Notes: generated by a model from the sequence alone, not told the origin. A stretch of DNA of 64,000 nt from Gammaproteobacteria bacterium (GCA_041689615.1 JBDNFW010000039.1:32465-96464), one strand, 5' to 3'; shown: positions 17,744-41,028, counted from the first letter of the stretch. Numbers and translations: made by a program.

Positions 17744-18790
17744 ATGAATAAGCCCACAGATAAAAAATTCAGCTACAAAGACGCTGGTGTTGATATTGAA
17801 CAAGGTAATGAACTGGTTCAACGACTAAAAAAGACCGCGGGCAATACTCATCGAGCCGGGGTTATGGGTGGACTTGGTGGTTTTGGCGCTTTGTTTGATC
17901 TGGGTTCATTGAATTATAAACACCCAGTACTGGTTTCAGGTACTGATGGCGTGGGCACCAAAATAAAACTTGCTATCGAACATAATATGCACGACTCGAT
18001 TGGAATCGATCTGGTTGGCATGTGTGTTAACGACTTGATAGTACAAGGCGCAGATCCTTTGTTCTTTCTGGATTACTTTGCTTGTTCCAGTCTTGATGTT
18101 GATGTTGCCGAAAAGGTTATTAATGGTATCGCTCAAGGTTGTTCATTGTCAGGCTGTAGCCTCATTGGTGGTGAAACTGCCGAGATGCCGGGGATGTATC
18201 AGGCTGGCGATTATGACTTAGCAGGATTTTGTGTTGGTGTTGTTGAAAAAGATGAATTAATAACCGGTGAAAATGTAGCTGAAGGCGATGCTATTATTGC
18301 GCTTGCTTCCAGTGGTTGTCATTCCAATGGTTATTCTCTTGTCAGAAAAATAATTGATGATACAAATCAGGATTTATCTGAAAAACTGGATGGCAAAACA
18401 CTACTCGAACTTTTTATCGAACCAACACGAATTTATGTAAAACAGATTTTAGCACTTATTAATAAAGTTCCGGTTAAAGCCATTGCGCATATTACCGGTG
18501 GTGGACTAGTCGAAAACATTCCTCGCGTTATTCCTGATAATTTATCTGTAGAAATTGACGCAAGTAGTTGGGAACTTCCACCCATTTTTAAATGGCTTCA
18601 AACAACAGGAAATATTGAAGCACATGAGATGTATAAAACATTTAATTGTGGTGTCGGTATGGTTGTTTGTGTGTCTCAAGAAAATAAGGATGAAGCAATT
18701 AGTCTTTTGAATAATATGGGTGAAACTGTTTGGGAGATTGGTAAAATAAGTTCCATTAATGGTAAGAATGCTAGCGTAACTTTTAAATAA
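17744..18790 (+). CDS. purM: Phosphoribosylformylglycinamidine cyclo-ligase (AIR synthetase)
   Basis: 348 aa. [22 protein letters not shown] motifs. Confidence 0.95.
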
Positions 18791-18851: not shown

Positions 18852-20408
18852 TTAATCAGACTTATCAGTAAATTGATAAATATAAATACTATTTCCTGCA
18901 TAACCAACGGGCTCATAAAGTTTAAGCCAATCAAGATCAGCCTTGTTCCAATAAGCAAGTTTTCGGGTATATATTAAATAATGTGTACTTATTGCGTAGA
19001 TGCCATTTCCAGGATTAATTAGTTCATTTTCCGATATTTGTCGAAAAGACAAACCATATAGCCGGGGATTTATTGCACCAAAATACATTAAATTAATCGG
19101 CACCTCATCGGGAAGATTATTCTTTTGCCATTCAACAAGAGCAGGAAGGTCCTGACCCCAATCTAAATTACTATCTTCTAGTAAATTAGGACCGTTACTC
19201 GGACCACCAACAATACTATTAAAGTATGAAAGATAATGTGGGTAAGTTATAAATGTAGTAACTATGTTCCATACTAAAAATAGACTAAAGATAGTTTTTT
19301 TAAATTTGTCAGGCTTAAGATAATTATATGAGCAGGCTATAAATGAAAACAAAAATGGATAAATTGGAAGAACCCGGCGTATTCCTAAATTATGTGTATC
19401 AAAACTACAAACAAACATTATTACTCCAACTGGAACAAGTAAATAAATAATAATATCTCTTTCCGGCCTGTATCGTATGCTTACATAGGCAGAAATTACC
19501 AATAGTAATAATGTAGATAGCGGTGTCTTAGCAAGTAATGCAGCAAAGTAGTAATACCAAACCGCCCCATCCAAAACATTCCCGAAAAGATAGTAATAAG
19601 AATCTGGATTATTTCTGACATATATTTGAGATATCCCACTAACATATAACCATGGTGTAAATTTGTATCCAAAACACAATATTAACAATATAGAAAAAAT
19701 TAAAAGAATAAGCCCACGAAATAAAACATTCTTGCATCTCTTATTAAAAATAATTTCGTACAAAGTAAAAATAATAAAAATTGGGACTAAAAGTAAAGCC
19801 GTATATTTACTTAAAAATGCTAATCCAGTAACTATTCCACAAATTACCCAACGCTTATTATTTTCTGCATGTATAGCAAGGTAAAATGTATAAACAGAAA
19901 TAAACATGAATACGGTGCATCCAAGATCAGTTGTTGCTAATTGACCATGAGCAATTAAATTTGGAGAAAAACCAACCAGAATAGAGGCGATAATAGCGGG
20001 AATTGATCCTGCAATATTTTTTACAAATAAACCGGTCATAATCACTAACAATGCAAAGAGCAACTGCACAGGCAACCTTGATAAAATAGTCATCACATCA
20101 AATTTATTTACATTTTTCTCAAAAAATAGATTTGCAAATTGAACTCTATTATTTGAGTTATAGTATTCATGTGAATAATCTGGCGATTGCAAGTCCAAAA
20201 ACATCAATGGGAGTGCTGTTAGAACTTGTGTTAAGGGTGGTGTATCTGGGCTTAGTTTGAATTCTTTATTATCAAGATAACTATATCCCGATACGATAAA
20301 TGTAGGTTCATCCCACGTCAGTGATTTTGTTCTTGCTGCTGAATTAACTAAAAAAAAACTGACCGCAGTAATACCAAAAATAATAAAATATATTGTTTTT
20401 GATCGCAT
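18852..20408 (-). CDS. GT-C fold membrane glycosyltransferase, ArnT/PMT (GT83/GT39)-like, paralog A
   Basis: 518 aa, 11 or more TM. First-loop WDEPTFIVSGYSY acidic motif. C-terminal periplasmic domain LLEDSNLDWGQDLPALVEWQKNN. About 65% identical to the adjacent paralog. Confidence 0.75.
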   Translation of the reverse strand: MRSKTIYFIIFGITAVSFFLVNSAARTKSLTWDEPTFIVSGYSYLDNKEFKLSPDTPPLTQVLTALPLMFLDLQSPDYSHEYYNSNNRVQFANLFFEKNVNKFDVMTILSRLPVQLLFALLVIMTGLFVKNIAGSIPAIIASILVGFSPNLIAHGQLATTDLGCTVFMFISVYTFYLAIHAENNKRWVICGIVTGLAFLSKYTALLLVPIFIIFTLYEIIFNKRCKNVLFRGLILLIFSILLILCFGYKFTPWLYVSGISQIYVRNNPDSYYYLFGNVLDGAVWYYYFAALLAKTPLSTLLLLVISAYVSIRYRPERDIIIYLLVPVGVIMFVCSFDTHNLGIRRVLPIYPFLFSFIACSYNYLKPDKFKKTIFSLFLVWNIVTTFITYPHYLSYFNSIVGGPSNGPNLLEDSNLDWGQDLPALVEWQKNNLPDEVPINLMYFGAINPRLYGLSFRQISENELINPGNGIYAISTHYLIYTRKLAYWNKADLDWLKLYEPVGYAGNSIYIYQFTDKSD

Positions 20409-20470
20409 CCTAATATTCTAAATCAAAAAACTAGATGGTTGAATTCATACAAACAAGTTACAGAGAAAGC

Positions 20471-22027
20471 CTAATGACCAGGCTTATCAGTAAACTGATA
20501 AATGTAAATACTGTTTCCAGCATATCCAATAGGTTCATAAAACTTGAGCCAATCAAGATTGGCTTTATTCCAGTAAGCAAGTTTTCGTGTATATATCAAG
20601 TAATGTACACTAATAGCATATATGCCATTTCTTGGGTTAATTAATTCATTTCTTGGTATTAATCGATAAGATAAACCATAAAGGCTTGGATTCATCGAAC
20701 CAAAATACATTAGATTTATTGTCTCTTCAGGATAATTATTTTTTTGCCATTCAACGAGAGCAGGTAAATCCTGACCCCAATCAATATTACTGTCCTCTAA
20801 TAAATTGGGACCATTGCTCGCTCCACCAGCCAGAATATTGAAATAAGAAATATAATCTGGATAGGCAATAAGCGTGGTTATGATATTCCATACTAATAAT
20901 GTGTTAAATAGTATTACTTTTAACTTGTTAGGATTTATATAAAAATAAGCAACAGATACATAGGAAAGTAAAAAAGGATAAATAGGCAATATTCTGCGTA
21001 AACCTAAATTTGTCAGATCAAAACAACAAACAAACATAATAATTCCAACAGGAATTAGAAAATAAACAATTGCATCTTTATCGAGACGGTAACGCAGCGT
21101 TATATATACAGATATTAGTAATAATAATAATGTCGATACAGGAGTCTTAACAAGGAATGCAGCAAAATAGTAATACCAGATTGGCTTGGAAAAAACATTT
21201 CCAAAAAGGTACTGTTGATAATCTATCTTACCAACATCATAAATTTTCGATACTCCATATAGATAAAGCCAAGGCTTAAAGCCATACCCAATACAGATTA
21301 CTAATAATATAAAAAATACTAAAAGAATTAATCCACGAAGTAATATTCTTTTATTTCGACCATTGAGAAGAATTTCATACAAGACAAAAATAAAGAAAAT
21401 AGGAACTAAAAGTAAGGCTGTAAATTTACTTAATAATGCAAGTCCTGTCACTAGTCCACAAATAACCCAACATTTATAATCTTCAGAGCGTATTGCTAAA
21501 TAAAAAGTATATACCGAAATAAACATGAGTACGGTACAACCAAGATCAGTTGTTGCTAATTGACTATGTGCGATAAGATTTGGAGACAACCCTACTAAAA
21601 CGGAAGCAGCAATTGCGGGCAACGGACCTGAGAGTGTTTTTACAAATAAACCTGCCATAACCACCAGTAATGCAAAAAGCAACTGTACTGGCAATCTGGA
21701 TAAAAAGGTTATATCACTCAACTTATCTCCATTGCTTTCAAAAAACATTTGTGCAAAAGCTATTTGTCTCTCAGCGGCATAATTTGGATGCGAATAATCT
21801 GGCGATTTTAAATTCAAAAACTTTAATGGAAATGCTACTAATACTTGTAAAAAAGGCGGGGCTTCTGGATTAAGTTTTATTTCTTTGTTATCAATATAAC
21901 TATATCCAGATACAATATATGTAGGTTCATCATATGTTAGTGACTTTGTTCTTGCTGCTGAAACAACCAATAAGAAACTGAATATAGCAATGCCAATAAT
22001 AATAAAATTTATTTTATTTGACTGCAT
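20471..22027 (-). CDS. GT-C fold membrane glycosyltransferase, ArnT/PMT-like, paralog B (tandem duplicate)
   Basis: 518 aa. YDEPTYIVSGYSY. Collinear with paralog A over the full length. Confidence 0.75.
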   Translation of the reverse strand: MQSNKINFIIIGIAIFSFLLVVSAARTKSLTYDEPTYIVSGYSYIDNKEIKLNPEAPPFLQVLVAFPLKFLNLKSPDYSHPNYAAERQIAFAQMFFESNGDKLSDITFLSRLPVQLLFALLVVMAGLFVKTLSGPLPAIAASVLVGLSPNLIAHSQLATTDLGCTVLMFISVYTFYLAIRSEDYKCWVICGLVTGLALLSKFTALLLVPIFFIFVLYEILLNGRNKRILLRGLILLVFFILLVICIGYGFKPWLYLYGVSKIYDVGKIDYQQYLFGNVFSKPIWYYYFAAFLVKTPVSTLLLLLISVYITLRYRLDKDAIVYFLIPVGIIMFVCCFDLTNLGLRRILPIYPFLLSYVSVAYFYINPNKLKVILFNTLLVWNIITTLIAYPDYISYFNILAGGASNGPNLLEDSNIDWGQDLPALVEWQKNNYPEETINLMYFGSMNPSLYGLSYRLIPRNELINPRNGIYAISVHYLIYTRKLAYWNKANLDWLKFYEPIGYAGNSIYIYQFTDKPGH

Positions 22028-22096
22028 CTAAATTCCAAATAATTAAACTCAGTGATTAATTTTAGTCTGCACAATACTCTACGTTTAATAATTAAT

Positions 22097-23059
22097 TCAC
22101 TTTCGGTATTTTGATGATTTTATATCTTTTACTAAATAGAGCGGCCTGTTTTTCGTTTCGTTAAAAACTCTTCCAAGATATTCGCCAATAATACCTAAAG
22201 CTAATAATTGAATACCGCCAATAAATGCAATTAACACAACTAATGAAGGATATCCTGCGACAGGATCACCAAACATAATTTTCTTTAAAATTATAATTAC
22301 GGCGAAAATTAACCCGGCAAAAGCAGTTAAAACTCCAAGTAATGATGCTAATCTTAGTGGCAATACAGAAAATGATGTTAGTCCTTCAAAGGCTAAATCT
22401 AGTAAACTCCAAAAATGCCATTTTGTTTCCCCAGCGTAACGTTCATCACGCTCGTAAGTAATCTCGGTTTGCGAATATCCTACCCAAGCAAATAAACCTT
22501 TCATATAACGATGCTTTTCTCGCAACTCTAATAAAGCGTCTAATGCATTTCGGCTTAGTAATCTGAAGTCACCTGTATCTTTTGGAATTTTTATATCACT
22601 TAACTGATATAGAAAACGATAATAAACAAATGACGACATTTTTTTGAATGCAGTTTCACCTTTCCTTTTGATTCTCTTAGCATTAACGACATCGTATCCA
22701 TCGTTCCATTTAACAACTAAATCAGGAATCAATTCGGGAGGATCCTGTAAGTCCGTATCAATAACAACTACAGCATCACCTGATGCATAATCTAATCCAG
22801 CAGTTAGTGCGATTTCCTTGCCAAAATTTCTGCTTAAATCAATGATGGTAATACGTGAATCGTTGTTGTGCTGCTTACTCATTATTTCTAATGTGTCATC
22901 CTGACTACCATCGTTCACGTAAATGATTTCCAGATTAACATCTAGATCATTAACTGCATCGACTAATCTTTTGTAAAACTCATCCAACCCAGCTTTTTCA
23001 TTATAAGCAGGCGCAACCACAGACAAGAGTTTTTTATTTTCTGTTTTTTTACTTTCCAT
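22097..23059 (-). CDS. GT2 polyprenyl-phosphate sugar synthase, ArnC/GtrB-like (undecaprenyl-phosphate glycosyltransferase)
   Basis: 320 aa. VVAPAYNE...YVNDGSQDDT, DTDLQDPPELIP. Two C-terminal TM helices. GEYLGRVFNETKNRPLY tail closely parallels E. coli ArnC. Confidence 0.85.
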   Translation of the reverse strand: MESKKTENKKLLSVVAPAYNEKAGLDEFYKRLVDAVNDLDVNLEIIYVNDGSQDDTLEIMSKQHNNDSRITIIDLSRNFGKEIALTAGLDYASGDAVVVIDTDLQDPPELIPDLVVKWNDGYDVVNAKRIKRKGETAFKKMSSFVYYRFLYQLSDIKIPKDTGDFRLLSRNALDALLELREKHRYMKGLFAWVGYSQTEITYERDERYAGETKWHFWSLLDLAFEGLTSFSVLPLRLASLLGVLTAFAGLIFAVIIILKKIMFGDPVAGYPSLVVLIAFIGGIQLLALGIIGEYLGRVFNETKNRPLYLVKDIKSSKYRK

Positions 23060-23061
23060 TT

Positions 23062-23793
23062 TTATATTTTCTTTGCTACAACTATTATTGAAAGACCAAA
23101 AGGAAATGTTATATTACCAATAAACCTAGATTCAAAACTGAATATTTTTTCAAAAAAAACGTTAATAAGGTTAGGCGGCATTTTTAAATCACTATCTTCC
23201 TCTGACATAATTATTTTTTGTTTCAATCTTTCGACAAGTGCTAAAGGAAATAAAAACGTATTAAAGTACGAGATATAATCAACTTTCCAACCATTATTTT
23301 CAATCAACTCTTTTAATCGCTTAACGGTATATCTTCTTTTATGATGATGTTGATCATCACGTTGAGTCCATAAAAATTGATATGCTGGCACTGTTAGAAC
23401 CAGATTTCCACTCTCCTTTACACAATCTCTCAATGCATTCAAGCTTCCAGCGTCGTCGTCAATATGTTCCAAAACATCCAATAACACCAACAAATCATTA
23501 TCTCTTCTTATATCTGCATGAATATTATCTGGCAACTCACCTTTTAATACTTGACCTACGTCTCTTACTTTCGCTTTCTCTAAAGCATTACCATCTCTTT
23601 CCATCGCGACTACATCACCATATTTCGACAAAAATGCAAGGTTATCTCCGTTACCACATCCTGCGTCCATAATATGTGAGCCTTTATCAATATCCAGCTT
23701 TTTAATAACACTTTCAATTATTTTCCGCCTTGCAACAAACCACCAATGCTGAGTTTCAACTTTATACATCTCATCAAATAATTCATTTTCCAT
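23062..23793 (-). CDS. Class I SAM-dependent methyltransferase
   Basis: 243 aa. IMDAGCGNGDN motif I. First gene of a four-gene minus-strand operon with the ArnC-like and ArnT-like genes. Confidence 0.75.
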   Translation of the reverse strand: MENELFDEMYKVETQHWWFVARRKIIESVIKKLDIDKGSHIMDAGCGNGDNLAFLSKYGDVVAMERDGNALEKAKVRDVGQVLKGELPDNIHADIRRDNDLLVLLDVLEHIDDDAGSLNALRDCVKESGNLVLTVPAYQFLWTQRDDQHHHKRRYTVKRLKELIENNGWKVDYISYFNTFLFPLALVERLKQKIIMSEEDSDLKMPPNLINVFFEKIFSFESRFIGNITFPFGLSIIVVAKKI

Positions 23794-23827: not shown

Positions 23828-24586
23828 TTATTTAATTTTTCCCTGAACCTTGGCCAAAATACCGCGCAATATATTGCATTCATTTTCTTCTAATTGTGTA
23901 CGATTAAATAATCGTCGCATTCTATGCATTAATAGACGCGGGTTATCAACATCATGAAATCCTATTTCGGTTAGGCATTGTTCCAGATGTTGGTAAAACA
24001 TTTCCATTTTATCCTGCTTCACCAGTGCTGTATTAGTTTCAACTATCTCCTTATTTTCTTCAAAGCCACCTAATAGATATATTTCATAACAAATAATTTG
24101 TACTGCGGAGGCCAAGTTAAGTGAACTATATTCCGCATTCGTGGGTATTTGTAAAACAAGGTTACAGAGTTCCAGTTCTTCATTACTTAAACCTGAATTT
24201 TCTCGACCAAATACAACCGCTACAGAAGAATATTTATTTTCGGAAATTGTATTCGCGCATTCTCTTGGCGTAACCATAGGCCAGGGTATGCTTCTCGTAC
24301 GAGCACTAGTACCAATCACCAGATCACAATCTGATATAGCTTCTTTTAGACTTGAAAATATTTTGGCATTAGCAAGTATATCATCAGCGCCCGTAGCTCT
24401 GGCTGTCGCTTCTGCTGAAGGAAATATTTTAGGGCTAACAAGATATAGCTTATCCTGTGACATTGTCTTCATTGCGCGGGCTGCTGCACCAATATTACCG
24501 GGATGTGTTGTCCCGACCAGCACGATCCTCGTTTTATCAAAAATATTTTTCATACTTGTTATTGCTTCACTCATGACTACTGACAA
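23828..24586 (-). CDS. trmJ: tRNA (cytidine/uridine-2'-O)-methyltransferase TrmJ (SpoU family)
   Basis: 252 aa SPOUT fold. VLVGTTHPGNIGAAARAM. Divergent from suhB as in E. coli. Confidence 0.85.
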   Translation of the reverse strand: MSVVMSEAITSMKNIFDKTRIVLVGTTHPGNIGAAARAMKTMSQDKLYLVSPKIFPSAEATARATGADDILANAKIFSSLKEAISDCDLVIGTSARTRSIPWPMVTPRECANTISENKYSSVAVVFGRENSGLSNEELELCNLVLQIPTNAEYSSLNLASAVQIICYEIYLLGGFEENKEIVETNTALVKQDKMEMFYQHLEQCLTEIGFHDVDNPRLLMHRMRRLFNRTQLEENECNILRGILAKVQGKIK

Positions 24587-29129: not shown

Positions 29130-29350
29130 AATTTTATATTAATTTATTTATGTATATAAACATGGGATTTAATTATAATAACATCTAAAAATTAGCCTTA
29201 TGGTACTGTTTGTTTTTCATTTTAATAGTATTAGTGTGACATATTTCTAAAAATACACTTTTTCTAAGACTACACTCTTAAATATCTTGTTTAATGAGAT
29301 CATCATAATTATTATTGATCACACATCCTATAACCCATAATCTACAGATA

Positions 29351-30286
29351 ATGAATAAACGAATATTAGTTACAGGCGGAGCCGGCTTTCTAGGTTCTCA
29401 CCTATGTAAAAAACTACTTGATGAAGGGAATGAGGTCATATGCCTTGACAATTTTTATACTGGCTCAAAGAAAAATATTATTTCCCTATTGGGGAATCCA
29501 TATTTTGAAGTTGTTCGTCATGACATCACTTTCCCAATATATCTTGAGGTTGATCAAATTTACAATCTAGCTTGTCCCGCTAGTCCAGTTTATTACCAAA
29601 AGTTTCCTATACAAACTACAAAAACTAGCGTATCTGGTGCAATTAATATGCTTGGCTTGGCAAAACGTTTAAATATTCCAATTTTACAAGCCTCTACAAG
29701 TGAAATTTATGGAGATCCAATTGTGCACCCTCAGACGGAGGATTATTGGGGAAATGTAAATTGCACAGGTATTCGCTCTTGCTACGATGAGGGGAAACGT
29801 TGCGCTGAAACACTATTTTTCGATTATCATCGAGAATTAAAATTAGATATTAGAGTGGCAAGAATATTTAACACTTATGGCCCTAACATGGCTGTCAATG
29901 ACGGAAGGGTAATTAGCAACTTTGTTATGCAGGCTTTAAATAATGAAGACATAACAATTTATGGTGACGGAAGTCAAACACGCTCACTTTGCTATGTGGA
30001 TGATCTAATTAACGGTTTAATCAAATTAATGAATAAACCAAATCATCATGAGCCTACTAACTTGGGTAATCCTAATGAACTATCAATCAAGGAAATCGCG
30101 GATAAAATATTGGAATTGACCGGTAGTAAATCGAAACTCGTTTTAAAACCATTGCCTGAAGATGACCCAAAACAACGATGTCCGGATATAACAAGAGCTA
30201 AACAGGATTTAAATTGGGAACCGATTATAGACTTGGATACAGGCTTAACAAATACCATAAATTACTTTAAGAACATTCCTATATAG
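29351..30286 (+). CDS. uxs: UDP-glucuronate decarboxylase (UDP-xylose synthase, SDR family; ArnA-decarboxylase-domain-like)
   Basis: Near-collinear with eukaryotic UXS1: [66 protein letters not shown] at 29351 preferred over the TTG at 29315 used by the ORF track. Confidence 0.85.
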
Positions 30287-33949: not shown

Positions 33950-34849
33950 TTATAACGCAGGATTTATCCATGTTTGAATTCCATCTCCAAACTCAATCTT
34001 TCCAAATGGCGTATCATTTATTTTATTACGCTTATAATCTCGTAAACAACTCCAATTATTATTTAACATCAATTCACGAATATTTTCTTCTATTTTTACA
34101 GAATGTGTTCCAATATGTAATCGCTTAACTTTTTTATTTATTATATCGGCAGATGATTTTAACACATCAAACTCTTTACCCTGTATATCCATATGGATCA
34201 TATCAACATAATCAATGTCTGATAAAATTGAATTTAACGTATAAGTTTTAACATTTAAAACATCAAGATTATATTGTCCTGTCTTGAATTTTTTCTGACG
34301 CCAGCACCTTATCTTCCTATAAAGCATATTTACTAAATTATCATTTACAATTGATTGCCCATAACATTTACTAGGATCTCCTATTTCAAATTGTACTATT
34401 TTTTCAGTATCATCAATTGCACCTTGATATATCTCATGATTTTCCACATTTATATTATTCATCTCTAGATTATCAATAACCCAGCCAAAGTGAGTAGGCT
34501 CTGCCTCGACTATTACAAGTTTAGTAAAAAGCGGCCTGAGTATTGAAGCTATATAATAAGCAATAACTGACCATCTTGCATATCCCGCACCTAATTCAAC
34601 AAAAGTATAATTATCCGTAGCGCACTCGATACTTTCACAAATATCTAGCCATTCAAATACAGCGTCATTATTCGTTGAAATTTCTTTTTTGCAGTAAAAA
34701 TCAAAACATTTTTTATCAGTGAAATTTATTTCTCTATTTAATTCCACATCATACTTCTTTAGTTGAACAGAGCCACAGCGAGTATGAATAATATCTGAAT
34801 CAAGATGTCCTTCTTTAAAGTTAAATCTATTAAATATCTCTGGATACAT
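33950..34849 (-). CDS. FkbM-family methyltransferase domain protein
   Basis: 299 aa. FVELGAGYARW...LVIVEAEPTHFGWVIDNL pattern typical of the FkbM MTase domain. Confidence 0.5.
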   Translation of the reverse strand: MYPEIFNRFNFKEGHLDSDIIHTRCGSVQLKKYDVELNREINFTDKKCFDFYCKKEISTNNDAVFEWLDICESIECATDNYTFVELGAGYARWSVIAYYIASILRPLFTKLVIVEAEPTHFGWVIDNLEMNNINVENHEIYQGAIDDTEKIVQFEIGDPSKCYGQSIVNDNLVNMLYRKIRCWRQKKFKTGQYNLDVLNVKTYTLNSILSDIDYVDMIHMDIQGKEFDVLKSSADIINKKVKRLHIGTHSVKIEENIRELMLNNNWSCLRDYKRNKINDTPFGKIEFGDGIQTWINPAL

Positions 34850-36137: not shown

Positions 36138-36917
36138 TCATGATAGTTTACAAGTTATTAAAGTATGCCAACCTAATTCCCTGCATAAAGCACCAAACAT
36201 TTTTTCAGACATAACTTCAAACCAAGGTTCAAGCTGATACTCATAATTTATATATTTCCCTACTATAAATGGAAATATATGATCCTGATGCATGTCAATA
36301 ATCTCAAAATCCGCTAATAATTCACGCAACTCATCCTGAGAATACGTATATGCAACAGGACATCCAGATTGTGCTTCTGGTTGGTCAAAGCCACTTTCTA
36401 TCATAATATTCTTCCATGAGTTTTTCGCATACATCATTAACCGAAATTCAGATTCATTACCCATATACTGCTTAACACTCTCTATCACTTCTCCTGGGTT
36501 TGGCGTGTGATGTATAACGCCAAAAGAATATACTAAATCATAATTTTCTATTGGAACGATTGATAATAAATCTTCTGCATTTCCTTGATAAAATTTTCCA
36601 TCTAAGTTAAAAACATCAAATCTTTTTTTAGTAAGCTCTAGACTTTTATCTGAGAGCTCAATAGCTGAATATTTTGCCCCTGCCCTTGCAAAATTTATTG
36701 CATCAGTACCCAACCCACATCCTATCTCAAGCACTTTCTTGCCTTTCCACTTTTCAAAATCGGCAAAGTGAGGAATGTGAGGCTCAACAAAATATTTTCT
36801 TTCTTCAACCTCATCGAAATATTTTTTTGTTCCTATCTCTGATAGTGAATGTCTTATATTACAAGGTCGCTTATTCCAGTAATCACGGACATTATTAATA
36901 TTATCGTTACCATTCAT
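36138..36917 (-). CDS. Class I SAM-dependent methyltransferase
   Basis: 259 aa. KKVLEIGCGLGTDAINFARAGA. Confidence 0.78.
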   Translation of the reverse strand: MNGNDNINNVRDYWNKRPCNIRHSLSEIGTKKYFDEVEERKYFVEPHIPHFADFEKWKGKKVLEIGCGLGTDAINFARAGAKYSAIELSDKSLELTKKRFDVFNLDGKFYQGNAEDLLSIVPIENYDLVYSFGVIHHTPNPGEVIESVKQYMGNESEFRLMMYAKNSWKNIMIESGFDQPEAQSGCPVAYTYSQDELRELLADFEIIDMHQDHIFPFIVGKYINYEYQLEPWFEVMSEKMFGALCRELGWHTLITCKLS

Positions 36918-36973
36918 ATCTTATTTTCACCTATCAATTTTCAAAATAAAAAATATTTTAATACTAACTTACA

Positions 36974-37852
36974 TTACTTTTTTGATGCTATTAACCAATC
37001 TGAACACATCCATTTCGGCAACCATGCTGCTATTTTCCCATTCAAACTTAACAAGGCATCACTTTCTCTCATAAGTATGTTTATAATATTTCCTGCTAAA
37101 AATGTACGGCTTTTAAACTCTATAATTTTATAACCACTACTTCTTAATAACTGTTTTATATTGCGAGATGTAAACTTATTACAGTGAATTGTTTCTTCAT
37201 CTAATGAAGAACATGATGCATTACAATATTCTGGGGAACGTTCAATTTTATGACGCTTTAACAAACTCTTTGAACCATATCGTTCTACTACTGCTTGCTG
37301 ACATAGATCAATGTAACTAACAAATTTCGGATAACGCTCATAAAAAATACTTTCAAATTCGAAATAACCATATCCATTAGGTACCGTTATTAACAAAAGT
37401 CCACCATCCACTAATACATCTTTCATTTCCTTTAATAATTCATCAGGTTTTTCCAAATGTTCCAAGACCTCCGAACAAATTACAATATGGAATTGTTCAG
37501 TATCAGTCAAAGTAGCTAACGATTGACAATAGAAGGATACATTAGAATAATTTTTCGTCATGCTAATTGCTTTATTAATGGATGCTTCGTTTACATCAAC
37601 ACCCTTAACATTGTACCCAATATCTGCAAGCGGAATAGTCACAGCAACACCAGTGCCACAACCAACATCTAGAATTTTAATGTCTTCAACACTAAAACCT
37701 AGACTACTTCTAATAGCTTCGATATGTTTTAAAAAAAATCGGAGGCGTTTAATAATGCCAAAGGCATCTTCTCTAAAACTATAACCGGAAAAATCAATCG
37801 TAGATGGAAATACATCAACACACTCTTGATTCAAGATTGGTGATGTATTCAT
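36974..37852 (-). CDS. Class I SAM-dependent methyltransferase
   Basis: 292 aa. KILDVGCGTGVAV. Confidence 0.78.
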   Translation of the reverse strand: MNTSPILNQECVDVFPSTIDFSGYSFREDAFGIIKRLRFFLKHIEAIRSSLGFSVEDIKILDVGCGTGVAVTIPLADIGYNVKGVDVNEASINKAISMTKNYSNVSFYCQSLATLTDTEQFHIVICSEVLEHLEKPDELLKEMKDVLVDGGLLLITVPNGYGYFEFESIFYERYPKFVSYIDLCQQAVVERYGSKSLLKRHKIERSPEYCNASCSSLDEETIHCNKFTSRNIKQLLRSSGYKIIEFKSRTFLAGNIINILMRESDALLSLNGKIAAWLPKWMCSDWLIASKK

Positions 37853-38577
37853 TCGGTCCTTATAAGATCAAACCAGTTAAAATCATTATTGTGAAAATTA
37901 AAACTGAGAATCACATTAAAATTAGCGGGACTAAGTCTTTCTTGTAGTTTATGGAGATCATACCATTCCATCCAAGGTGCTCCTCCATCTGTTTTCGCTC
38001 CCCATTTATCTAATGGCATTTCACCTTCCTGCACCCAGCGTTCTCTTGGATAAGCTAATTCAATCCATCGACCTCCGACCGGCAAATGCTCTAATAATAA
38101 CTGTGCTTCCTCACCTGCAATATCAAAAGGAAGATTAATCATAGAACCTTGACACCAAATTACATCAAAATTGCTTGGTAATTTTTTTAACGACTCAAAT
38201 TCTTCTAAGTAAAGAAATTCAACATTTGTTAGCCCTAGTAAGCAACAAATTCTTTTCAGAAGTTCAAGGTTCGATTGTACGATATCTACAAATGTCACAT
38301 TCGCTCCATTTTGGGCAAATGTAATTCCATCTATGCCAAAACCACTACCCACATCCATAATCTTCTTATTCTTAAAGACCTCCATATACAGACTGTGATA
38401 CCAGCCTCTAACTTCAAAATATTTTCCTGTGGTAGCATCTATCTTTGTTTTATTCCACAATTCTATCAATTCTTTATCCGAAATATTTTTCAATTCAGAT
38501 GTAGTAATTCGGCTATGTCCCGCAGGCACTTCACACCATTTATCTCGCAACTTTTCCAATGGTTTATTCCAGTTCAA
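37849..38577 (-). CDS. Class I SAM-dependent methyltransferase
   Basis: 242 aa. KIMDVGSGFGIDGITFAQNGANVTFVDI. 4-bp overlap with the next methyltransferase gene. Confidence 0.78.
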   Translation of the reverse strand: MNWNKPLEKLRDKWCEVPAGHSRITTSELKNISDKELIELWNKTKIDATTGKYFEVRGWYHSLYMEVFKNKKIMDVGSGFGIDGITFAQNGANVTFVDIVQSNLELLKRICCLLGLTNVEFLYLEEFESLKKLPSNFDVIWCQGSMINLPFDIAGEEAQLLLEHLPVGGRWIELAYPRERWVQEGEMPLDKWGAKTDGGAPWMEWYDLHKLQERLSPANFNVILSFNFHNNDFNWFDLIRTE

Positions 38578-38642: not shown

Positions 38643-39758
38643 CTAGGTTAGTCTATACATGTCTAAAAACTGCGTGCTATTTCCATAAAAAAACGGAATG
38701 CTCTTAATGTATTTTTTTAAGAAACTGTCATGTTTTGTTAACTTGTTCGGAAACGTTATAAATTTTTTTTTATAATGAATCTTATTTGACTTAATATCAA
38801 CGATCCTTAATTCATTTTTATCCGCAATTGAAAATGCATATATGTCACCATCAATTTGTATAGAATCATGTAGCCATTTTGATTCTATACTGAACATATT
38901 TTTGACATTTCTATTTTTATCTATAACCAGTAATTTCCCTTCCGTACTATCAGTAAAGTATATTAAATCTTTGTCACTGACTCTTGCTCCATGGCATCCA
39001 ACATGTCCTGATATAAGCTCAACATATTTTCCAGTATCCAGATTAAAACACCCTACAGCTCCAGGTATTAATGCTGATACCACTATATTATTTTTCTTTT
39101 TATCCGGATACGCAGAATTAATATGAGCTATCTGCAAATCATTTTTTATATAATGATTTCGAAGATCCATTTCTTCAGTAATCTCATAATTCTCTCCATA
39201 TATCTCTTTAGGCATTCTAATATTTTTCTTTACTTCACCCGAATCCAAATCAAGAATCATAATAGCATCAGAAGCCGAAGCCGAAATAACGGCAAGTTTT
39301 TCTGTTACCATAGAAACCGTATGTAAGCCGGCAAAATGCGGATGGCTATATGTCTTATAAAGATAACAATCTGTTTTATTTAAATTATTATATTTTGTTA
39401 TAGATTTATGAAGTTTCCATAATTCAATTGATGCTACATAAACTACTATTATAGTTTTTTCATCTACTAATACAGCATGTTGTATTTTTCTATTTGAACA
39501 TACAGAACCGAGCATTTTAAAAAAATAATTATTATTTAAATCTTTTAATGCCAAATAAAAACTAATACCACCTGTATACAAGATGGATTCTTTTATTGGC
39601 AACAACTGTTCAAATGGAATTAAATTTTGCAACCGATCAGGGGACGCATATCTTTGTTCCAATGATTTTCTAGCACACTCGGAAAAATCCGTTTTTCTAC
39701 TTGAATGGGTTAAAGAAATAACACCAAATTTTATTTTTTCAGACACAGATTTAATCAT
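38643..39758 (-). CDS. Hypothetical protein, probable beta-propeller (SGL/NHL-like)
   Basis: Repeated blade-like segments, e.g. GHVGCHGARVSDKDLIYFTDSTEGKLLVID. Start moved to the second Met (MIKSVSEK), giving an 8-bp overlap with the wzt stop instead of the 68 bp in the ORF track. Confidence 0.4.
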   Translation of the reverse strand: MIKSVSEKIKFGVISLTHSSRKTDFSECARKSLEQRYASPDRLQNLIPFEQLLPIKESILYTGGISFYLALKDLNNNYFFKMLGSVCSNRKIQHAVLVDEKTIIVVYVASIELWKLHKSITKYNNLNKTDCYLYKTYSHPHFAGLHTVSMVTEKLAVISASASDAIMILDLDSGEVKKNIRMPKEIYGENYEITEEMDLRNHYIKNDLQIAHINSAYPDKKKNNIVVSALIPGAVGCFNLDTGKYVELISGHVGCHGARVSDKDLIYFTDSTEGKLLVIDKNRNVKNMFSIESKWLHDSIQIDGDIYAFSIADKNELRIVDIKSNKIHYKKKFITFPNKLTKHDSFLKKYIKSIPFFYGNSTQFLDMYRLT

Positions 39759-41028
39759 GTGTTTTTGAGCTATTATTAAGCTTCCATTTTTGCTGCATAG
39801 AATAATATCCACCACCAAATTTTTTGGAACCTTGAATTATAAAATTTTTTATACTGAAATTACTGATTGATGCGGCAATCGAAGAAAAATTATTCGGTAA
39901 AACAAAAAGAACGACAGAATAGTTACCAGGAACTAACCATAATCCATTAATATATATACTCAATTGATATTTCTCATTAGCGTTAATAGATATTTTATCT
40001 ATCATGTTTTCGCTGTTATTGCCTGATATGACCATTTTTTCCTTATGAAACTGTAAACATACAATAATATTATCTAACTTCTGAGAAGAATTAATTGAAC
40101 AAGTTAAATTGACCCCAATATTAGGCTCAAAATATTCAACCTCCTCATTATTTTCATTAGTAAATTTAAATTCACTAATTGTAATAATCGGGTCTTTAAT
40201 ATTTACATCAAACTCTGGCGAAACTTCTGAAGCACTCATTGTTGATAATGCATCTTTTTGAAATTGTTTTATTACTTGTGTTGTTTCACCTATACTGCTG
40301 ATAATGCCATCTTTCAAATAAATACATCGGCTAGCAAGTGTTTCTACAACACGTAAATTATGTGACACAACTAATACTGTACGACCATGGCTTGATGCTT
40401 CACTAATTTTTTTTATACATTTTTTTTGAAACCCAATATCTCCAACGGCAAGCACTTCATCTATTAATAATATTTCTGTTTCCAGTTGCGCCGCTACCGC
40501 AAAAGCTAAACGCATATACATCCCACTCGAATAATGCTTCACTGGTGTATCGATAAATTTTTCTATTTCAGAAAAACTAACTATTTCATCAAATTTTGAA
40601 TTAATTTCTGTGCGTTTCATACCTAGAATCACACCGTTTAAGAAAATATTCTCACGACCTGTTAATTCAGGATGAAAGCCGGCTCCAACTTCCAAAAGAG
40701 AACCAACACGACCTAGAATTTTTGCACTACCTGAAGTTGGCTCAGTAATACTTGTAAGAATTTTTAATAAAGTACTTTTCCCTGCTCCATTCCTGCCGAT
40801 AATCCCAATTACTTCACCTTTTTTTATATCAAACGATACATCTTTTAATGCCCAGATTGTTTCACCTAGCTCTACAGCTGAATGACCACCCAGGTATGAT
40901 TTCAATCTTCGAAACGGAGAGGTGACTTTTTCTTCTATAGACTCGCGCAAAGTATTATATCTGGCCTGCTTTCGGCCTATCCTGTAGGACTTACTTAAGT
41001 CCTCTACGTGAATTGCAATTTCGTTCAT
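39751..41028 (-). CDS. wzt: ABC transporter ATP-binding protein Wzt/KpsT/TagH type with ~170-aa C-terminal extension (putative glycan-terminus binding module)
   Basis: Walker A GRNGAGKST, signature YSSGMYMRLAFA, Walker B LLIDEVLAVGD. Residues after ~250 are non-NBD and beta-rich. Confidence 0.85.
   Translation of the reverse strand: MNEIAIHVEDLSKSYRIGRKQARYNTLRESIEEKVTSPFRRLKSYLGGHSAVELGETIWALKDVSFDIKKGEVIGIIGRNGAGKSTLLKILTSITEPTSGSAKILGRVGSLLEVGAGFHPELTGRENIFLNGVILGMKRTEINSKFDEIVSFSEIEKFIDTPVKHYSSGMYMRLAFAVAAQLETEILLIDEVLAVGDIGFQKKCIKKISEASSHGRTVLVVSHNLRVVETLASRCIYLKDGIISSIGETTQVIKQFQKDALSTMSASEVSPEFDVNIKDPIITISEFKFTNENNEEVEYFEPNIGVNLTCSINSSQKLDNIIVCLQFHKEKMVISGNNSENMIDKISINANEKYQLSIYINGLWLVPGNYSVVLFVLPNNFSSIAASISNFSIKNFIIQGSKKFGGGYYSMQQKWKLNNSSKTHD

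Follow-up and report, generated by a model that had tools for sequence, protein, structure and literature searches.

What kind of glycosylation system sits between the housekeeping genes purM and trmJ in the genome of an uncultured marine gammaproteobacterium, and what does it decorate? The question is raised by a 64-kb stretch of DNA (64,000 nucleotides; hereafter the window) from Gammaproteobacteria bacterium GCA_041689615.1 (JBDNFW010000039.1:32465-96464), in which four minus-strand open reading frames (ORFs) at 18852–23793 form a module encoding a methyltransferase (MT), a family 2 glycosyltransferase (GT2) and two paralogous glycosyltransferases of the GT-C type, here called A and B. An initial annotation, made from the sequence alone, had described an ‘ArnC-like/ArnT-like’ module that moves an undecaprenyl-phosphate-linked monosaccharide in the periplasm to lipid A/core or another envelope acceptor, and had hinted at recent acquisition. 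The reading towards which we lean, with some reserve, differs in both target and history: the module would be a Gtr-type system for glycosylation outside the cytoplasm, maintained on the chromosome by vertical descent, that decorates a surface glycan at two acceptor sites.

The basic layout is as first described. ORF calls agree with searches of Pfam (43 window proteins) and of NCBIfam models on a four-gene minus-strand operon between purM and trmJ (Table 1), and its lower GC content was likewise borne out, the module genes having a GC of 0.32–0.35 (0.22–0.26 at third codon positions) and their neighbours 0.38–0.42 (0.27–0.37). Purifying selection acts on each of the four, as judged by the ratio of nonsynonymous to synonymous substitution rates (dN/dS).

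The GT2 belongs to the GtrB family. Compared with solved structures, it scores 348 bits against Synechocystis GtrB (5EKP, newer entries being similar) and 183 bits against ArnC; the alignment with GtrB covers 307 residues at 50% identity without a gap, and that with Escherichia coli ArnC shows 34% identity and 14 gaps. The protein has a GT-A domain followed by two C-terminal transmembrane (TM) helices, its dN/dS is 0.055, and it keeps 10/10 of the GtrB residues – D94, D96, Q98, D99, R122, R125, K132, D157, R197 and W207 – that time-resolved cryo-electron microscopy has assigned to the handling of metal, UDP-glucose (UDP-Glc) or undecaprenyl phosphate (PMC12698845). Such an enzyme almost certainly makes a polyprenyl-phosphate hexose, that is, a lipid-linked sugar donor, and the best guess for the sugar is glucose, given the 50% identity to the UDP-Glc-using Synechocystis enzyme. 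As an ArnC equivalog it fails, reaching 204 bits with the NCBIfam model PRK10714 against a cutoff of 529.

A GT2 that loads undecaprenyl phosphate and a GT-C enzyme that transfers the sugar in the periplasm are nonetheless what the module shares with the E. coli arnBCADTEF system, whose ArnC is a recognisable homolog. It could be supposed that A and B, as ArnT-like or Rhizobium Rgt-like enzymes, place a neutral or acidic sugar on the phosphates of lipid A or on the 3-deoxy-D-manno-octulosonic acid (Kdo)/core region, with effects on charge and on cationic-peptide resistance. This proposal suits a diderm host that has lipopolysaccharide (LPS) genes, and is in keeping with a ugd gene and an epimerase of the short-chain dehydrogenase/reductase (SDR) family in the neighbourhood; we nevertheless consider it distinctly improbable. 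The ArnA/B/D/E/F proteins are all missing: as the initial annotation had noted, no aminotransferase, formyltransferase or deformylase of the pathway occurs among the Pfam-scanned window proteins, and its view that the sugar is something other than aminoarabinose (Ara4N) is supported. The module lacks all three of the defining Arn features looked for – an ArnC equivalog, ArnT signatures, and genes for Ara4N synthesis and flipping – and, where the Arn genes form a stand-alone inducible operon, its arrangement suggests constitutive, housekeeping-linked expression.

The Rhizobium enzymes RgtE and RgtA–D offer a somewhat different parallel: they carry out galacturonosyl transfer to the LPS core and lipid A, and combine an ArnC/GtrB-like synthase with GT-C paralogs of the PMT_2 type, an adjacent pair of which serves different LPS positions. 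The likeness to the module is one of arrangement: a synthase with a paralogous GT-C pair, and a UDP-glucose dehydrogenase gene nearby. A difference is that the neighbouring SDR epimerase could not be recognised as a UDP-glucuronic acid (UDP-GlcA) 4-epimerase.

What, then, are A and B? An AlphaFold (AF2) model of A, with 62 homologs, has a predicted local distance difference test score (pLDDT) of 94 and a predicted template-modelling score (pTM) of 0.93. Foldseek searches with this model return at the top, with probability 1.0, ArnT, ALG9, Pmt4 and STT3 (template-modelling (TM-) scores of about 0.5, 11–14% identity); ALG12, PglB, AftD and Emb follow, the whole set spanning TM-scores of about 0.4–0.6 and 9–14% identity. 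ArnT is the first of these (5F15/5EZM, E 2e-6), a point in favour of lipid A modification, yet at a TM-score of about 0.5 and 11–12% identity it stands no closer than ALG9, Pmt4 or STT3; the best TM-score among the top matches, 0.57–0.60, belongs to Pmt4. With hhalign, the GT-C family profile aligns to E. coli ArnT at a probability of 76%, though only across 178 core columns out of 518; this, too, can be counted towards lipid A modification. The same profile gave probabilities below 1% against the 518-aa protein of no known family, the STT3-like protein, the further PMT_2 protein and the 622-aa protein encoded elsewhere in the window, comparisons that are uninformative with one-sequence templates.

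At the sequence level the ArnT likeness disappears. No PDB entry, ArnT included, is matched by the GT-C sequence at E ≤ 1, neither A nor B matches an ArnT-type NCBIfam model, and PMT_2 alone is found in them at E ≤ 0.01, with the PMT (PF02366), MIR and Arnt_C (PF18583) domains undetected; a genuine ArnT from a metagenomic locus (L173), by contrast, shows PMT, PMT_2 and Arnt_C together. A and B are GT-C-fold PMT_2 enzymes that resemble ArnT at the level of the fold only. The labels first given to the module consequently stand for superfamily and fold and not for identity, the GT2 being a GtrB and the GT-C enzymes failing the ArnT signatures.

Among the residues invariant across the 62 GT-C homologs are the loop-1 pair D33–E34, H154, D161, R344 and the C-terminal D416-W-G-Q419. 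Protein O-mannosyltransferases (PMTs) use an acidic ‘DE’ motif in their first loop, and the Asp–Glu pair of A lies in the first extracytoplasmic loop. Together with the PMT_2 assignment and the Pmt4 TM-score, this resemblance suggests another acceptor altogether: A and B might be PMT/GT39-like, or might depend on a donor synthase as the streptococcal GtrB/PgfS-dependent enzymes do, and glycosylate Ser/Thr-rich stretches of proteins in the periplasm or at the surface, such as pilin or lipoproteins. There is precedent on both sides of this idea: streptococcal GT-C enzymes are known to glycosylate proteins in a GtrB-dependent manner (PMC12041528), and Caldicellulosiruptor needs a GT39 enzyme for its protein glycosylation (PMC6151902). 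The donor synthase is of the GtrB/PgfS kind too, and PgfS provides its best NCBIfam model, although the score (290 bits for NF047588, cutoff 500) falls far short of equivalog level. Unlike PMT/GT39 enzymes, however, A and B have no MIR or PF02366 domain; unlike the streptococcal systems, theirs is in a diderm host; and what adjoins the module is a polysaccharide cluster, with no candidate Ser/Thr-rich substrate protein beside it. Protein O-glycosylation is in our estimate unlikely, if worth keeping in view, and the pilin gene discussed below bears on it further.

The taxonomic spread of the GT-C family speaks to both alternatives. In species-representative genomes the family accounts for at least 592 matching stretches, with members in Geobacter, Myxococcota, Planctomycetota, Omnitrophota, Elusimicrobiota, Patescibacteria, Chloroflexota and archaea. 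Occurrence in monoderms, bacteria of the candidate phyla radiation and archaea is what protein glycosylation would lead one to expect, and since the family, with its DWGQD motif, is present in the LPS-less Patescibacteria, Chloroflexota and archaea, it is not intrinsically a lipid A modifier. Of the transfer originally proposed, the periplasmic mechanism thus holds and lipid A as the default target does not. Outside the clade to which the window belongs, no GtrB-like gene is found beside the GT-C genes: adjacent GT2 matches all score 59 bits or less, and some of the GT-C genes adjoin short GT2s of about 240 aa.

The tandem duplication of the GT-C gene is old. A and B share 70% of their protein residues (346/497) – the duplicate itself was correctly described, its identity (given as about 65%) somewhat underestimated – and 73% of 1551 aligned nucleotides. 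At third codon positions the two genes agree to 57%, the longest perfect match between them being 25 nt; an independent repeat finder reports a direct duplication at a spacing of 1619–1622 nt and 71–79% identity. A neighbour-joining tree that includes outgroups unites the A copies from three genomes as a clade in 200/200 bootstraps and joins the B copies to the single-copy gene of the TARA contigs in 182/200, and in it the window’s A and B are never sisters. As the A and B clades span three genomes, the duplication predates the divergence of those genomes. B shares 80% identity with P0007, the single-copy protein of the TARA contigs, and only 69–72% with the B copies of otherwise closer genomes, and by these comparisons it is the ortholog of the single-copy TARA gene.

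Both copies have been retained under purifying selection in the three genomes, with dN/dS values of 0.22 for A and 0.17–0.19 for B. Between the A and B clades, 29 positions are fixed differently, and 17/29 lie in three predicted extramembrane loops that make up 137/518 residues (odds ratio 4.4, p = 3e-4, with loops delimited post hoc from the secondary structure of the model); one of the 29, W32Y, directly precedes the invariant D33–E34. This loop-enriched divergence is in keeping with two acceptor sites or linkages for A and B, and the earlier suggestion that the duplicate reflects two specificities is strengthened by the retention, the dN/dS of about 0.2 and the position of the substitutions alike.

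One further feature of A is a T9 homopolymer at codons 17–20. It is one of two A/T runs of at least 9 in the 64 kb, occurs in the A orthologs of L001/L002 too, and is broken up by other bases in B and the single-copy genes; its length is constant in the three assemblies, all in frame. As a slipped-strand site it may be a weak lead.

Related loci, here designated by L numbers, show what else can occupy the space between trmJ and purM. The window and L177 have MT-GtrB-B-A; L001/L002 have GtrB-B-A, the MT being cleanly absent; and the TARA loci L003–L007 carry, in order, an extra GT2, MT, GtrB and one GT-C. MT-GtrB stands alone in L087, L088 and L096, MT alone in L091, and in L093–L095 MT-GtrB is followed by a 491-aa Alg9-like GT-C of the GT22 type, only 24% identical to A. 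L092 and L097 reach their contig ends after trmJ-MT and trmJ-MT-GtrB, respectively, the rest of the slot lying off the contig. The trmJ–purM slot holds the module across a marine clade, with MT-GtrB as its stable core and the GT-C as a swappable part. Between none and two copies of the transferase, drawn from non-orthologous families among close relatives, fit strain-variable surface antigens better than a modification of lipid A. In support of the latter, a metagenome-assembled genome (MAG) of the Thiotrichaceae has its MT-GtrB-GT22 trio elsewhere in the genome, beside lptF/lptG.

A 4-kb contig labelled ‘Thermodesulfobacteriota bacterium’ (L007, BQJP01000118.1) carries trmJ-MT-GtrB-GT-C at 63% identity to the window; its synteny is that of the marine gammaproteobacterial TARA contigs, and it is probably mis-binned.

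Might the module instead, as first proposed, be a genomic island acquired recently, in which recombination between the duplicated genes drives phase or antigenic variation? Its GC below that of the flanks, the tandem direct repeat and the T9 tract in the 5′ end of A could be taken that way, but the idea as a whole is very improbable, and its first half is refuted. In all of the relatives examined the module occupies this one position, the outcome that the initial annotation had named beforehand as contradicting recent acquisition, and the GC depression recurs in L001, L003 and L094; position and common offset together identify an ancestral feature of the clade rather than a recent import. Signs of mobility are missing: no integrase domain turned up among the window proteins scanned with Pfam, a transfer RNA scan of the window found none, and a phage collection queried with the GT-C protein gave no match. 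An Rfam scan of the window returned zero matches. As for recombination between the paralogs, 73% identity, a longest match of 25 nt and a duplication older than the split of the three genomes make for a poor homologous substrate, contrary to the high similarity initially assumed, and the T9 tract does not vary in length.

A milder form of exchange is suggested by synonymous divergence (dS), which amounts to 0.50 for A (window versus L001) and 0.66 for B (window versus L003), compared with 1.0–1.8 for the flanking purM, trmJ and GT2 in the same pairs. With the GT-C values below those of the flanks, and B nearer the TARA gene than the B of closer relatives, GT-C cassettes may have been moving between lineages by recombination in the conserved flanks, a further point in favour of the island proposal.

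A conserved donor gene with exchangeable transferases is familiar from the Gtr systems of enteric bacteria. There, a lipid-linked hexose made by GtrB is flipped and then transferred by a serotype-specific GT-C (PMC11127046), and in Salmonella conserved GtrA/B contrast with highly divergent GtrC families at one locus (PMC3688519). A Gtr-type periplasmic modification, a galactosylation, of the ABC-transporter-made O-antigen of Klebsiella O2 is cited in the first of these articles (PMC11127046). The module has two of the features by which membership among the Shigella, Salmonella and Klebsiella O2 systems can be judged, a GtrB-family synthase and adjacent GT-C-fold transferases; like them, it combines a conserved donor gene with non-orthologous transferase families in one locus, and it adjoins an O-polysaccharide cluster of the ABC-transporter type, the kind of O-antigen for which Klebsiella O2 provides the precedent. 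In contrast to them, it has no GtrA, is not phage-borne and has no integrase; it occupies a core-genome slot and is probably transcribed with trmJ; its transferases are PMT_2 enzymes and an ancient tandem pair; and an MT is coupled to gtrB.

Co-transcription with trmJ is probable from gene spacing and strand: the MT start lies 34 nt from trmJ (2–35 nt across all relatives), and gaps within the module measure 2–69 nt. Scans for regulatory signals between 18.6 and 25.7 kb were uninformative on operon structure, with 32 promoter-like sites against 33.8 expected from shuffling and 9 terminator-like sites that are all within coding regions, none being intergenic.

The MT is translationally coupled to the GT2: in the window, 2 nt separate the end of the one from the start of the other, and in relatives the reading frames overlap. 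The MT accompanies the GT2 also where the module sits elsewhere, as in the Thiotrichaceae MAG. A profile scan of metagenome contigs for the MT gave 80 loci at 29–74% identity. A GtrB-like GT2 (150 bits or more) is directly adjacent on the same strand in 14/36 distant loci that extend 1 kb or more to each side and in 7/12 closer homologs. GtrA-family flippases accompany the distant MT-GtrB pairs in L100 and L112 and occur in fused form in L122, and the polytopic GT-C-type families near distant MT loci include DUF2079, GT87, YfhO/PTPS-related proteins, DUF6044 and true ArnT, the last in L173, where a distant MT homolog adjoins the ArnT with its Arnt_C domain – an association that again favours lipid A. 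The MT-GtrB pair is a recurrent unit with variable transferases, drawn from at least five GT-C families, and a literature search, gtr operons included, found no description of an MT-GtrB pairing or of a system of MT, GtrB and GT-C. Fusions of MT and GT2 were considered and rejected: the long ORFs of L145, L168 and L172 carry only a C-terminal methyltransferase domain.

What the MT methylates is less easily read. Its AF2 model (pLDDT 87) has a generic class I fold, and fold searches return generic class I matches only, with indistinguishable E-values, among them phosphoethanolamine N-methyltransferases, the sugar O-methyltransferases RebM and AtmM, and prenyl-diphosphate methyltransferases; a sequence search of the PDB is equally weak. 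S-adenosylmethionine (SAM) is available only in the cytoplasm, so a methyl group would be added before flipping, and by association the MT may O-methylate the sugar while a nucleotide or lipid still carries it. Going further, the MT and the GtrB-type synthase might be a two-enzyme unit that makes a methylated lipid-linked hexose for interchangeable GT-C enzymes, a ‘four-component’ variant of periplasmic glycosylation, a tentative idea that strikes us as more doubtful than probable.

The surroundings of the module, summarised in Table 1, bear on the acceptor.

Table 1. Position of the module and of neighbouring features in the window
Feature	Position	Strand	Evidence or remark
purM	17744–18790	plus, convergent with module	TIGR00878, 473 bits
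GT-C paralog A, 518 aa, purM-proximal duplicate	18852–20408	minus	Pfam PMT_2, E 2e-14
T9 homopolymer in A	20350–20358	minus	codons 17–20
GT-C paralog B, 518 aa	20471–22027	minus	Pfam PMT_2, E 1.5e-12
GtrB-family polyprenyl-phosphate hexosyltransferase (GT2), 320 aa	22097–23059	minus	Glycos_transf_2, E 8e-34
Class I SAM methyltransferase (MT), 243 aa	23062–23793	minus	Pfam Methyltransf_23/11/12
trmJ (tRNA 2′-O-methyltransferase), upstream of module	23828–24586	minus	NCBIfam TrmJ, 266 bits; TIGR00050, 256 bits
Polytopic GT-C-like protein, 584 aa	25672–27426	minus	TIGR04154 (archaeal STT3), E 1e-12, below cutoff
Polytopic GT-C-like protein, 526 aa	27549–29129	minus	PMT_2, E 4e-8
UDP-xylose synthase (UXS)	29315–30286		386 bits to human UXS1; true UXS, not ArnA
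Polytopic protein, 518 aa	30526–32082		no known family
FkbM-type methyltransferase	33950–34849		inside Wzm/Wzt cluster
Three consecutive class I methyltransferases	36138–38577		inside Wzm/Wzt cluster
Wzt with C-terminal carbohydrate-binding domain	39751–41028		adjoins the methyltransferases
GT4	45269–46474		follows AglJ/DPM1-like GT2
AglJ/DPM1-like GT2	46513–47385		follows 622-aa protein
622-aa protein, at least 8 TM segments	47417–49285		no Pfam match; 108 bp downstream of pilA
pilA, type IV pilin gene	49393–49938		

Beyond trmJ, in divergent orientation, lies suhB, and between 25.6 and 49.3 kb there follows a glycan region with a Wzm/Wzt ABC-transporter polysaccharide cluster, ugd, UXS, GT4 and GT2 enzymes and several methyltransferases, bounded by pilA-pilR-pilS. 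The region varies between relatives. In L094, pilA abuts suhB directly, which marks the approximately 24 kb of glycan genes as itself a variable insert, and in L003, L087 and L092 the content between suhB and pilA differs from that of the window; genes found there in other relatives encode radical SAM enzymes, a DegT aminotransferase, an LPG_synthase_TM protein and a TylF methyltransferase. Within the Wzm/Wzt cluster of the window, the Wzt carbohydrate-binding domain and the run of methyltransferases beside it are consistent with a methyl-capped, chain-terminated O-polysaccharide.

Including A and B, the window encodes six GT-C-like candidates, the others being the 584-aa, 526-aa and further 518-aa proteins and the pilA-adjacent protein. 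The 584-aa and 526-aa proteins, each with 8–9 hydrophobic segments, are kept in L001 and L177 and may use the same lipid-linked donor; one synthase of the GtrB type may supply more than one GT-C enzyme here. Xylose, which the neighbouring UXS would provide, is a possible transferred sugar, but UXS is not specifically tied to the module, since it adjoins suhB also in L091/L092, which lack the GT2.

The pilin gene that bounds the glycan region, and that in L094 adjoins suhB, speaks for protein O-glycosylation. In Pseudomonas, pilin-glycosylation genes (TfpO/TfpW) are placed after pilA, an arrangement that the layout at 45269–49938 recalls. Yet pilA has its own adjacent membrane protein of 622 aa and a DPM1/AglJ-like GT2, both better positioned than the module to modify it.

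Several points weigh against the preferred reading of a Gtr-type system acting on a surface glycan. GtrA, a defining component of three-component systems, is absent from the 64 kb: apart from one ORF antisense to trmJ, no GtrA/PF04138-like ORF of up to 200 aa with at least 3 hydrophobic segments was found. By its best NCBIfam match, PgfS, which stays below its cutoff, the GT2 resembles a streptococcal protein-glycosylation enzyme, and an identity of 50% does not reveal which of glucose, N-acetylglucosamine, galactose or other sugars a GtrB-family member uses. Membership in the GT-C family is uninformative on an LPS acceptor; the proposed surface-glycan acceptor is drawn from gene context. The non-discriminating fold search gives no substrate call for the MT, which, being alone in L091 and cleanly absent in L001, has no obligatory link to the glycosylation chemistry. 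Finally, AT-biased third positions compress dS and so weaken the comparison from which cassette exchange was deduced.

With these points in mind, the Gtr-type system can be pictured as follows. At the cytoplasmic face, the GtrB-family enzyme would move a hexose, likeliest glucose, from a UDP-sugar to undecaprenyl phosphate, and the MT, probably an accessory, would O-methylate that sugar while it is still nucleotide- or lipid-linked. A flippase, for which the window encodes no GtrA, would then turn the lipid-linked sugar over, and in the periplasm B and A would each pass it to a different position, or in a different linkage, on an envelope acceptor – most likely the O-polysaccharide/outer region of LPS or another surface glycan produced by the adjacent hypervariable Wzm/Wzt cluster.

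For annotation more generally, the module cautions that a GT2 paired with a GT-C enzyme is not automatically ArnC/ArnT, and hence not automatically a sign of polymyxin resistance. Should the proposed reading hold, the MT and GtrB unit would be a core-genome fixture in an abundant group of marine gammaproteobacteria, with exchange of the GT-C behind it, by the same diversification logic as in the phage-borne gtr operons of enteric pathogens, but on the chromosome and beside housekeeping genes. The resulting diversity of surface glycans would matter for how marine cells resist phages and grazers, and the recurrence of the MT-GtrB pair across phyla possibly points to an undescribed class of methylated lipid-linked sugar donors.

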